Shown here piece after piece: positions 15,801 to 58,264 of a stretch of 64,000 nt of DNA. Below the pieces are notes generated by a model. That model was not told the DNA's origin. It saw nothing but the letters and a program-made list of their open reading frames with translations, and did no database searches. The translations under genes were made by a program, and so were the position numbers. Within the stretch, counting starts at the first letter, position 1, and every line of letters begins with the position of its first letter. This DNA comes from Methanocaldococcus indicus (GTDB taxonomy: Archaea; AGJL01; Methanococci; Methanococcales; Methanocaldococcaceae): the NCBI RefSeq assembly GCF_049554935.1, contig NZ_CP186926.1, forward strand, positions 384,001 through 448,000, written 5' to 3'.

Positions 15801-16471
15801 TCAATAACTGTTCCATCACTTTCTCCTTTAACAGCTTTTAATAGTTCTTCTGGTTCTCCTTTTACAACAACTGTCTTTATTTTAGCCCTTTCAATAATTT
15901 TAGCAGCTAAAGGGTCAATAACAGAAGAACTTCCAGCTTTCAGGGAAGAGGAAATAGCAATATTAACAAGTTCTTCAAAACTCAACTTACTGTATTTTTT
16001 AGCATCTTTAAATTTTTTTGGGTCTTTGTTATAGACACCATCAACATTAGTCCCAATAACTAACAAATCAGCATTAATAAACTCTGCTAATCCAGCAGCA
16101 ACTGCATCAGTTGTATGAGCTGGATGAGTTCCTCCTAACACAGGAATTTTTCCAGTAGATAAGATTATTTCAGCTTCTTCAAAATTTGTAGGAATCTTTT
16201 TTATACTATAATCATTTAGAGCAATAGCCAATATTAATGCATTTAATCTTGTAGAAAGTATTCCCAAAGTATCACACAGAGAATCATTAGCATTTAACTC
16301 TCTTGCTAATCTTATATAATCTCTTGCTGTCTTTCCTCCACCTACAACAATAGCAATCTCATGACCTTCATCTTTTAATTTTTTAAAAACCTTTGCATAT
16401 TCTTTTATCTTTTCTGATGATGGATTTTCAGGCATTATAACAGAGCCACCTAAATCAAAAACTATCCTCAA
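15797..16471 (-). CDS. pyrH: UMP kinase
   Basis: DLGGSV, VVGGGKTAR, HTTDAVAA, TNVDGVYNKDP. Confidence 0.95.
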   Translation of the reverse strand: MRIVFDLGGSVIMPENPSSEKIKEYAKVFKKLKDEGHEIAIVVGGGKTARDYIRLARELNANDSLCDTLGILSTRLNALILAIALNDYSIKKIPTNFEEAEIILSTGKIPVLGGTHPAHTTDAVAAGLAEFINADLLVIGTNVDGVYNKDPKKFKDAKKYSKLSFEELVNIAISSSLKAGSSSVIDPLAAKIIERAKIKTVVVKGEPEELLKAVKGESDGTVIE

Positions 16472-16562
16472 TGTTTCACCTTATAATAATCCTTAGTTTC
16501 TTTTTATTATAAAATGGTTTAGAACTTTTAATATATTTACTTTGTAATAATTTATATATTTG

Positions 16563-17003
16563 GATAACAATTATCACGCTAAAAATTTTTATTTTTTGAT
16601 TTTATTGGGTTTTAGTTGATTATTTTCAATTTAGAGGATTTTTAGGGAAATTCAGAGGGGTCTGTATTTTGAATATTTTATATATTCTAATTATATAATC
16701 TATTGAGATTTTTAGGTGTTTTATGTCGTTCCTTTTAATATTTGAAAATCTCCAATAAATAGAGTTGATTTTTTAATATAAAAAATTTTTAATTGAAAAA
16801 TATGGAATAGAAAGATTTTTATAAAAGTTCAAAGGTATATAAATGAATAGGGAAACCTACCCTTCAAAAAATTTTTATGTAGAAAAGCTTATATATGAGA
16901 AGGTCGTTAATGTTATTATGTCTAAAATGTGCCAATAAGCCCTTTTTGTTTCATAAATATTTTTAGAGAATGTCGTTAATGTTATTATGTCTAAAATGTG
17001 CCC
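16563..17003 (+). promoter_or_regulatory. CRISPR leader 1 (long AT-rich leader, BRE/TATA AAAAGCTTATATA near 16884-16896)
   Basis: Aligns by eye over its whole length with 56794-57166; immediately precedes array 1. Confidence 0.85.
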
Positions 17004-17367
17004 GCTAAAATCGTGCCTCTTGGAGGATGGAATTTTTATTTTAGAGTGTTTAATATATCATCTGATTACGAGCTAAAATCGTGCCTCTTGGAGGATGGAA
17101 TATTTTGCCACTTCTGAAACTCTTAACCCAAATAACCGCTAAAATCGTGCCTCTTGGAGGATGGAATTTATAATAATCATATTAAGAAGATGCAGAAGAA
17201 TGTCTTAAAAATGCAGAGTACTTGGAGGATGGAATTTATAATAATCATATTCTTCCTTTTTCTCCCATGCTAAAATCGTGCCTCTTGGAGGATGGAAACT
17301 TTTTTATTAAATTTATAGGATGTGGAGTTAGATTTGCGCTAAAATCGTGCCTCTTGGAGGATGAAAA
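17004..17367 (+). CRISPR. CRISPR array 1: 5 full 30-bp repeats plus one half repeat, repeat GCTAAAATCGTGCCTCTTGGAGGATGGAAW
   Basis: Repeats at 17004, 17072, 17138, 17269 and 17338 (last degenerate); half repeat 17221-17235; no cas genes adjacent. Confidence 0.95.
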
Positions 17368-17406
17368 TCACTTTTTTTTATTTTAAAAAAACAAATGTGA
17401 GTATAA

Positions 17407-18045
17407 ATGAAAGTTGCTATTTTATCAGAAGGTAAATATGGATTGAGAGCATATAATAACATTAAAGAGAAATTTCCTACTGATTTTTTAATTGTGAAGT
17501 ATTATGGAGATGTTGATATAGAGATTGATAAAGATATTATTAAAAAATTAAAAGATTATGATTTATTTATTTTATATTTAAATCCAAATTTATCCTATGA
17601 GATTGTTGAAAAAATTAAAAAACTAAATCCAAAAGCTTATGTTATATTAGGATTTTGGGGTGGAGAAGGTTTTAAGAGGCAAATTGAAAAGTTTGGTAAT
17701 TGTATAGCTCCTAAACTTTTATGTGAGTTAGATGAAGAATATTTAAAGAACTATATTGATAAGTATCCTCAACTAAAAGAGTTTTTAAAATACTTTGGAA
17801 AGCCAAAAATAGAAGTGAAACTTAAAGATAATAAAATAGTTGATTATATAGTAATTAGGGACTCTATTTGTGGCTCTGCCAAGGAAGTTATTAAAGAGTT
17901 TTTAGGTAAAGAGTTTAATAAGATAGATTTAGGTTTGAGATTACAACATTTCTGTGTTGCTGGAAAATGTGACATTTTTAAAAAAGAAGAGAGTAAAAAA
18001 GCAAAAGCTGGAAAAATTTTTGTTGAAAATATAGAGACTGTTTAA
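17407..18045 (+). CDS. DUF166 family protein
   Basis: GKYGLRAY, FGKPKIEV, RDSICGS, RLQHFCVA resemble DUF166. Confidence 0.65.
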   Translation: MKVAILSEGKYGLRAYNNIKEKFPTDFLIVKYYGDVDIEIDKDIIKKLKDYDLFILYLNPNLSYEIVEKIKKLNPKAYVILGFWGGEGFKRQIEKFGNCIAPKLLCELDEEYLKNYIDKYPQLKEFLKYFGKPKIEVKLKDNKIVDYIVIRDSICGSAKEVIKEFLGKEFNKIDLGLRLQHFCVAGKCDIFKKEESKKAKAGKIFVENIETV

Positions 18046-56793: not shown

Positions 56794-57166
56794 GATGACA
56801 ATTATCACGCTAAAAATCTTTATTTTTTGATTTTATTTAGTTTTAGTTGGTTATTTTTAATTTAAAGGATTTTTAGGAAAATTCGAAGGGGTCATTATTT
56901 TGAATATTTTGTATATTTTGATTATATAATTTATTGAGATTTTTTAGAGATTTATGTTGTTTCTTCCAATATTTGAAAATCCCTGATAAGTTGGTTTAGT
57001 TTTTGGAAATTGGGACTTTTTAATTGAATAATAGGAAATAGAAAGATTTTTATAAAAGTTCAAAGGTATATAAATGAATAGGGAAACCTACCCTTCGAAA
57101 ATTTTAGTACCAAAAAGCTTATATATGAGAACGTTGCTATATTATTATGTCTAAAATGTGCCTCCT
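56794..57166 (+). promoter_or_regulatory. CRISPR leader 2 (homologous to leader 1)
   Basis: Shares ACAATTATCACGCTAAAAAT...GGTATATAAATGAATAGGGAAACCTACCCTTC...AAAAGCTTATATATGAGAA...TTATGTCTAAAATGTGCC with 16563-17003. Confidence 0.87.
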
Positions 57167-58264
57167 GTTAAAATAAGACCGTCCCGGTATGGAAATTTTA
57201 TGTTATAATTTGTAATAGTATATAACATAGCTAAATGTTAAAATAAGACCGTCCCGGTATGGAAATTGCATCTCTAATAATTCTTTCAGCTGGAATGTGC
57301 TTGTTAAAATAAGACCGTCCCGGTATGGAAATTTATGTTATGACATTGGAATTGCAGGAGATGTTAAGTTAAAATGCCTTTCTAAATCGTTCTTTTGGTC
57401 TCTGCTTGAATTGGAATTGCAGGAGATGTTAAGTTAAAATAAGACCGTCCCGGTATGGAAATTATGAAGTCATAGAAATGGATGGAGAGCCTTTTTTGTT
57501 AAAATAAGACCGTCCCGGTATGGAAATCAACTTTTAAGAATTCTTTTGTTAGTTGGACTGGCTTAGTTAAAATAAGACCGTCCCGGTATGGAAATAATTT
57601 TGTCCTTGTGAGTGTTACTTTTAAGCCATATCCCTTAAGTTAAAATAAGACCGTCCCGGTATGGAAATTTCATTCCAAGAAAACGAAAATCTCGATAGGC
57701 GTTAAAATAAGACCGTCCCGGTATGGAAATAAAAAAGAGATGTGGTGCTCAATGGTTATTTGTTTAAGTTAAAATAAGACCGTCCCGGTATGGAAATCTT
57801 CATATTGGAATTCTTCTTTATCTTGCAAACCATGTTAAAATAAGACCGTCCCGGTATGGAAATCTTCATATTGGAATTCTTCTTTATCTTGCAAACCATG
57901 TTAAAATAAGACCGTCCCGGTATGGAAATTTTTTTGAATACATAGCTAATCACTTGACACTTGATGTTAAAATAAGACCGTCCCGGTATGGAAATATTGT
58001 AGGGGATATAACTAACACAATTAGGGTTAAGTTAAAATAAGACCGTCCCGGTATGGAAATATGACTAAGCAAATATTTTGAAGTATAAAACAAAATGTTA
58101 AAATAAGACCGTCCCGGTATGGAAATCGTCCCCCCTCGCCCCTCGGCTTTAAAGTCATGACATGTTAAAATAAGACCGTCCCGGTATGGAAATCTTATCT
58201 CAAATTGTATCTCAAATAAAAGATGCTAATATCAGTTAAAATAAGACCGTCCCGGTATGGAAAT
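57167..58264 (+). CRISPR. CRISPR array 2: 16 identical 30-bp repeats GTTAAAATAAGACCGTCCCGGTATGGAAAT
   Basis: Repeats at 57167, 57237, 57303, 57433, 57498, 57566, 57639, 57701, 57768, 57834, 57900, 57966, 58031, 58097, 58164 and 58235; no cas genes in window. Confidence 0.98.

Follow-up and report, generated by a model that had tools for sequence, protein, structure and literature searches.

That Cas1-Cas2 can integrate off target has been established in vitro and with over-expressed enzyme; in the excerpted literature considered here, fixed cases from nature are few and have been called circumstantial. Nivala, Shipman and Church reportedly found in 2018 that non-canonical integration by an over-expressed type I-E integrase seeds neo-CRISPR loci in E. 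coli, and natural off-target cases in two other species are said to be termed 'circumstantial' in the context of that work. For a type II-A system, McGinn and Marraffini are said to have described in 2016 ectopic integration inside the array after loss of the leader-anchoring sequence.

In vitro, P. furiosus Cas1-Cas2 also integrates at non-CRISPR sites, which are paired 30-31 bp apart (Grainy et al. 2019, PMC6698737). According to the sections of that paper considered here, the junction CCCT/GTTA and an A-rich block midway along the repeat are critical for accurate integration, mutations of the junction destroy accuracy, and the off-target sites resemble the repeat, the best of them at 43% identity (PMC6698737). 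For type I-B adaptation in Haloarcula hispanica, the excerpts of Wang et al. 2016 (PMC4872114) describe a ruler that places the distal cut independently of sequence, and engineered repeat mutants gave aberrant duplications of 29 and 31-33 bp upon a shift of the anchor (PMC4872114).

Here we describe a 31-bp duplication around a 38-bp insert inside a CRISPR leader of an archaeal type I-B genome, together with five sibling events in the same genome. The genome consists of a 1.41-Mb chromosome (C1) and a 22-kb plasmid (C2), has 28% GC and is assembled in two contigs with no N. To judge from its relatives, it belongs to the thermophilic Methanococcales. The window, that is, the whole stretch of DNA that was analysed, comprises 64 kb of the chromosome (C1:384001-448000).

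Structure of leader 1 and its insertion

The elements of leader 1 and of the adjoining array are listed below; the event in the leader is designated E1.

16530 to 17003, plus strand: CRISPR leader 1, homologous to 11 other leaders up to 16933 and then from 16966
about 16836 to 16844: second conserved TATA-like stretch of the leader
16889 to 16896, plus strand: TATA-like box TTATATAT, conserved in 12/12 aligned leaders
16903 to 16933, plus strand: E1 duplication, copy 1, leader sequence
16934 to 16971, plus strand: E1 spacer-length insert, 38 bp, 21% GC
16972 to 17002, plus strand: E1 duplication, copy 2, adjoining the array via one C (17003)
17004 to 17367, plus strand: CRISPR array 1, five full 30-nt repeats (GCTAAAATCGTGCCTCTTGGAGGATGGAAT) and one partial repeat made by event E2

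A sequence-only reading of this DNA had noted a unique 38-bp insert between the copies of a perfect 31-bp direct repeat whose end is 1 bp short of the first CRISPR repeat. Its coordinates were reproduced exactly and the observation is confirmed. Two copies of the 31-mer GTCGTTAATGTTATTATGTCTAAAATGTGCC, and no more, are present in the window (16903-16933 and 16972-17002), a recurrence for which 100 dinucleotide shuffles gave an expectation of 0. The 38 bp between the copies (16934-16971) are unique in the 64-kb window, and a single base, C at 17003, lies between the second copy and the first 30-nt repeat at 17004. If one mismatch is allowed, the direct repeat reaches 37 bp on its left side (97% identity), since GAGAA precedes both copies and is followed by G in one case and by T in the other.

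The duplication, 31 bp against a repeat of 30 nt, is about one repeat long, and the period of 69 bp compares with 66-69 bp elsewhere in array 1. Ordinary spacers (n=81) measure 24-48 nt, mostly 35-41, so that the 38-bp insert falls inside their range. With a GC content of 21%, the insert is AT-rich, like the host.

Three simple explanations were rejected. E1 is no ordinary repeat-spacer unit, because the flanking 31-mers differ from the array repeat: aligned in register, the 31-mer agrees with a repeat at no more than 11/30 positions, the mean of the null distribution being 12.6. Simple tandem duplication or slippage does not fit the 38 bp between the copies, which align nowhere in the leaders or the genome. 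Insertion sequences and MITEs are recognised by target duplications of a few to about 15 bp and by terminal inverted repeats; in E1, the duplication measures 31 bp, the ends (AATAAG.../...GAGAAT) are not inverted repeats and the insert is single-copy.

In array 1, which holds two of the six events (E1 and E2), the last two full repeats are degenerate at their 3´ end. Its leader-repeat junction reads GCCC/GCTA versus the consensus TCCT/GTTA, and array 1 is the sole array with that junction. Because of such scars, CRISPR finders list 'spacers' that are too long (100 and 101 nt here) and misplace the ends of leaders.

Authenticity and derived state of the duplication

The second array of the window has a leader homologous to leader 1 and served for direct comparison.

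57167 to 58264, plus strand: CRISPR array 2, 16 identical repeats (GTTAAAATAAGACCGTCCCGGTATGGAAAT), with a single-copy leader ending at 57166

Leader 2 (about 57100-57166 for the part concerned) has one copy of the duplicated segment and no insert, as had been stated before, and alignment of all leaders of the genome extends this to 11/11 other leaders (leader 2 and ten elsewhere), each single-copy and free of the insert. The duplication in leader 1 is thus derived. The other leaders are 85-91% identical to leader 1 over an interval from about 16526 or 16571 to 16933, and at least three of them share the 31-mer. Nine of the 11 end in ...TGTGCC(T) TCCT / GTTAAAAT, two in ...CCT / GTTAAAAT. An orthologous empty site was not found for E1, the closest available relatives being only about 75% identical in the flanking gene.

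The junctions were also checked against reads. In run X1, a Logan unitig of 98 nt equals positions 16904-17001 with 0 differences at a depth of 24.5, and the flanking single-copy contigs have depths of 24.6-28.9. The length of the unitig is as expected, because the word length is 31 and the unique insert lies between two exact 31-mers. X1 is possibly the assembly's own data, so the unitig checks the assembly and is not independent support. Contigs of two further runs, X2 and X3, match the unique flanks of the array (16300-16592 and 17396-17700) with 100% identity or close to it, which suggests that both contain a near-identical strain. Among the pieces listed for runs X2-X4, none extends across the insert, so that these runs speak neither for nor against it.

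The search for a source of the 38-bp insert in virus and plasmid databases, which the sequence-only reading had suggested, gave none. In the own genome there are only AT-rich partial matches (23-24/38), and 39 other genomes of the order contain no match with up to 3 mismatches. Plasmid and phage records gave only chance partials in unrelated bacteria, and no exact match was found in viral, metagenome and genome collections, where exact scans would miss a diverged protospacer.

By simple arithmetic, the block moves the array 69 bp away from the TATA-like box at 16889-16896, in agreement with the earlier reading. This box is a putative promoter element of the leader.

Array 2 carries a duplication of another type. 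At 57768-57929, one repeat-spacer unit is perfectly duplicated in tandem with a period of 66 bp (2.5 copies, 100% identity), probably by recombination or slippage and not by new acquisition.

Adaptation genes of the genome

The genes cas4, cas1 and cas2 were all found in the genome. There is a single copy of cas1, a 330-aa open frame recognised by the type I-B Cas1b model with 448.9 bits; the family is also present in the control genome of Methanocaldococcus jannaschii. The type I-B locus consists of cas6, an IS6 transposase gene, a 517-aa ORF, cas7, cas5, cas3, cas4, cas1 and a convergent cas2. For the 517-aa ORF, which takes the position of cas8b, no family match was obtained. The convergent arrangement of cas1 and cas2 was considered as an oddity and dropped, since one relative (G011) has the same arrangement.

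The gene of the IS6-family transposase (L013:6843-7487, minus strand; C1 about 958.8-959.5 kb) stands between cas6 and the ORF in the cas8b position, and its insertion might affect the expression of interference genes. We also observed perfect, iteron-like 30-bp tandem repeats at C2:1863-2002 and C1:635689-635811; they may be replication-origin elements.

Five sibling events

The whole genome was scanned for exact direct repeats of at least 18 bp at offsets of 40-130 bp, and non-canonical repeats of at least 25 bp were sorted. These comprised five with a unique insert (E1, E2, E3, E5 and E6), five tandem-array loci (C1:635689, 770301, 1265296, 1271871 and C2:1863) and one mis-filtered canonical repeat. 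A sixth event of the insert type, E4, was masked from the scan by nesting. A looser scan (at least 27/31 matches, offsets 55-85) revealed nothing more outside arrays except tandem repeats and a 27/31 pair at C1:227085. Thus, in a genome of 1.44 Mb, short direct repeats around a unique insert lie in or beside CRISPR-cas DNA in 5/5 cases.

17153 to 17251, plus strand: E2, 31-bp duplication (17153-17183 and 17221-17251) around a 37-bp insert (17184-17220)
57345 to 57440, plus strand: E3, 31-bp duplication (57345-57375 and 57410-57440) around a 34-bp insert (57376-57409)
C1:967342-967177, minus strand: E4, 31-bp duplication, 37-bp insert; target of 14 nt leader and 17 nt repeat
nested in E4: E5, 31-32-bp duplication, 35-36-bp insert; extends from the true leader-repeat junction into the E4 insert
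C1:965777-965881 (L013:13778-13882): E6, 33-bp duplication, 39-bp insert, 51% GC

The duplications of the six events measure 31, 31, 31, 31, 31-32 and 33 bp and the inserts 34-39 bp. In E2, the target combines the final 15 nt of repeat 3 with 16 nt of spacer, and in E3 it combines 23 nt from the end of a spacer with the first 8 nt of repeat 4 in array 2. When E2 and E3 are excised in the sequence, spacers of 33 and 35 nt are given back. E4 and E5 share a locus beside cas2 (C1:967164-967353, minus strand) that consists of a leader, the two nested off-register events and a single full repeat. The leader at this locus also contains a plain tandem duplication of 13 bp, GTTGCTATATTAT being present twice.

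E6 covers exactly the cas4 stop, an 8-nt gap and the cas1 start, and leaves both cas4 and cas1 intact. In at least seven relatives, the half on the cas4 side and the half on the cas1 side map to overlapping coordinates, and the single-copy junction was read in the sequence of G011; E6 thus has orthologous empty sites and is derived. No source of its GC-rich insert was found.

Repeat mimicry by the targets was considered and rejected for E1, E2, E4 and E6, whose targets are no more repeat-like than random 31-mers.

The insert of E2 is copied from a HEPN gene

The insert of E2 is identical in 37/37 positions to C1:1171348-1171384, 770 kb away, within the HEPN-domain gene (Pfam) of a nucleotidyltransferase-HEPN pair. 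As the bases flanking source and insert differ on both sides, the lengths are fixed at exactly 37 bp for the insert and exactly 31 bp for the duplication. CCA, a candidate PAM, precedes the source. Further matches of the insert are to the plasmid paralogue of this gene (C2:9761-9797, 35/37) and to two paralogues in another genus. Beside this plasmid HEPN gene, the plasmid has its own leader and an array of six repeats (C2:9397-11139).

Since the insert copies a distant gene, slippage is ruled out for E2. A 37-bp copy of a distant gene between 31-bp duplications is the kind of product that a spacer integrase generates, and neither slippage nor homologous recombination yields it.

In a search for the PAM of the system, none of the 81 ordinary spacers gave a full-length match in the own genome or in plasmid or phage records, and only two 18-nt self partials were seen; the corresponding search of relatives used the whole array, and its output was dominated by array-to-array matches. 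The E2 insert is the only self-matching 'spacer', and it stands without intact flanking repeats. Mis-registration may well have made this self-derived spacer harmless.

Occurrence in congeners

The same scan was applied to 40 array loci of six congeners with 285 and 221 repeats (506 together). A single comparable event was found, in G009 (L064:1379-1482, C1 about 1049.4 kb). There, the leader-proximal repeat lacks its first 6 nt, and a duplication of 30-31 bp extends from the true junction (CCCT/) to 6 nt into the spacer, around an insert of 42-43 bp. We class it as a natural 'ruler' event. In G010 (L053), a pair of repeats that looked 'odd' turned out to be two complete repeats.

By the same criteria, four events per 95 repeats here compare with one per 506 in the six congeners. 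A binomial estimate gives about 0.003, which is suggestive of an excess in this genome, for kin and events that are not independent and for the sampled loci only.

Origin of the insertion in leader 1

The sequence-only reading had proposed that a spacer was integrated off target, about one repeat length upstream of the proper site. The geometry of E1, its derived state and the five sibling events all support this proposal. The 69-bp block, made of the 38-bp insert and one 31-bp leader copy, is in our opinion quite likely the scar of an out-of-register full-site integration by the sole Cas1-Cas2 of the genome, which we infer to be the agent of E1.

The integrase would be the type I-B Cas1-Cas2, acting with Cas4. 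Both of its strand transfers would hit the leader, at a distance of about 31 bp: one would fall between GAGAAG and GTCG on the top strand, the other 1 nt upstream of the true leader-repeat junction on the bottom strand. Upon repair of the gaps, a prespacer of ordinary length would come to lie between two copies of the 31-bp leader segment. The right border, which is on the opposite strand and 1 nt away from the true junction, would fit a complex docked one repeat-length upstream, or one in mirror orientation. A ruler of about 31 bp that depends little on sequence presumably sets the spacing of the events, and mis-docking may have been favoured by the degenerate junction of array 1 (GCCC/GCTA). 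An insert without real flanking repeats would not be expected to undergo crRNA processing and would be a dead spacer. The array retains 31-37 bp of authentic leader beside repeat 1, with the upstream leader elements 69 bp more distant.

Four points were counted against out-of-register integration: no protospacer was found for the E1 insert, the insert is AT-rich, the target is not repeat-like, and the duplication measures 31 and not 30 bp. To these comes the GAGAA in front of both copies. Its chance occurrence is estimated at about 0.3% per event and side and at about 4% over 12 sides, and the match hints at a 37-bp duplication or at microhomology.

The first of these hints leads to other borders drawn by the same integrase: a duplication of 37 bp (GAGAAGGTCG...TGTGCC) around an insert of 32 bp, followed by a G/T substitution in one copy. 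Such borders would account for a direct repeat of 37 nt at 97% identity and for a GAGAA match that is improbable by chance (about 0.3%), and spacers of 32 nt do exist (2/81). However, 37 bp would be an outlier among the other five duplications of 31-33 bp, exactly 31 in E2, and the later mutation would have to have happened to leave a perfect 31-bp run. We consider these borders unlikely.

The second hint is that of a Cas-independent process, in which break repair or template switching with microhomology doubled the leader and filled in about 32-38 bp of unrelated DNA. GAGAA at the junction could be the microhomology, the E1 insert is without a found source, and the 13-bp tandem duplication in the C1:967-kb leader demonstrates that slippage occurs in leaders. 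Nevertheless, such repair leaves unexplained the repeat-length duplication with its spacer-length insert, the 5/5 confinement to CRISPR-cas DNA and the 37-bp copy of a distant gene in E2, and it is very unlikely to have produced E1.

An ancestral or selected bipartite leader element, e.g. a second promoter, lost from the other leaders, could be imagined from the TATA-like run ATAAATATTTTTA in the insert; it is extremely improbable, as the element is missing from 11/11 paralogous leaders and from 39 other genomes of the order, and the identity of the copies over 31 bp points to a recent event. An error of assembly in the form of a collapsed or chimeric join, conceivable among about 12 near-identical leaders of which at least three others share the 31-mer, has an equally minute probability in a genome of two contigs without N, where the 98-nt unitig (X1 maybe being the assembly's data) carries the insert and 30 nt of leader on each side at single-copy depth with 0 differences.

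Out-of-register integration thus being the preferred origin of E1, a broader supposition about the lineage can be considered, which we put forward tentatively and rather doubt: its one type I-B integrase no longer keeps register and has left at least six misplaced insertions per about 95 repeats, against one junction-anchored event per 506 in six congeners. The 72-bp insertion that now parts cas4 from cas1 could be the cause, as could the degenerate junction of array 1. If this is true, the scars show a ruler of about 31 bp that is largely sequence-independent, and mis-registration may let a self-derived spacer, such as that from the HEPN gene, escape autoimmunity by lack of crRNA processing. 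The leader-derived 31-bp duplicates would then be a first step to a new repeat type, the natural birth of a neo-CRISPR.

Six scars with exact borders, one of them of known source, provide a natural read-out of the integrase ruler in a type I-B archaeal system that has no genetic system of its own. They suggest a link between a degenerate leader-repeat junction and mis-registration and open plausible routes to the tolerance of self-derived spacers and to the birth of new repeat sequences.

Comparison with known systems

The evidence supports E1 as a natural, fixed instance of the known off-target or off-register integration by Cas1-Cas2. Especially notable are the count of events in a single genome, the location of E1 within a leader, the insertion between cas4 and cas1, and the self-derived insert that fixes the duplication at 31 bp.

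The genome shares with P. furiosus a 30-nt repeat of the GTT...GAAA type, the junction being CCCT/GTTA there, in the portion of the published account considered, and TCCT/GTTA here. Whereas the off-target sites of P. furiosus reported in that portion are repeat-like, the E1, E2, E4 and E6 targets resemble the repeat no more than random 31-mers do. The system of H. hispanica is of the same subtype, and like the aberrant duplications in the excerpted description of its mutants, E5 and the G009 event reach from the true junction over about 30-31 bp into non-repeat DNA. The E1 duplication differs from what these excerpts describe in lying wholly in the leader, so that even the first cut must have been displaced.

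As in the ectopic integration said to occur in the type II-A system, spacers have gone to the wrong place where junction signals are weak; the type II-A events reportedly involve a whole repeat in register, whereas the register is shifted here. The closest resemblance in form is to the E. coli work attributed to Nivala and colleagues, where, in the part of the account at hand, a spacer-length insert likewise lies in a repeat-length duplication of non-repeat DNA. Unlike those reported laboratory events, the six described here are fixed in a wild type I-B archaeal genome, most of them no more than about 32 bp away from a true repeat border and one of them in a leader.
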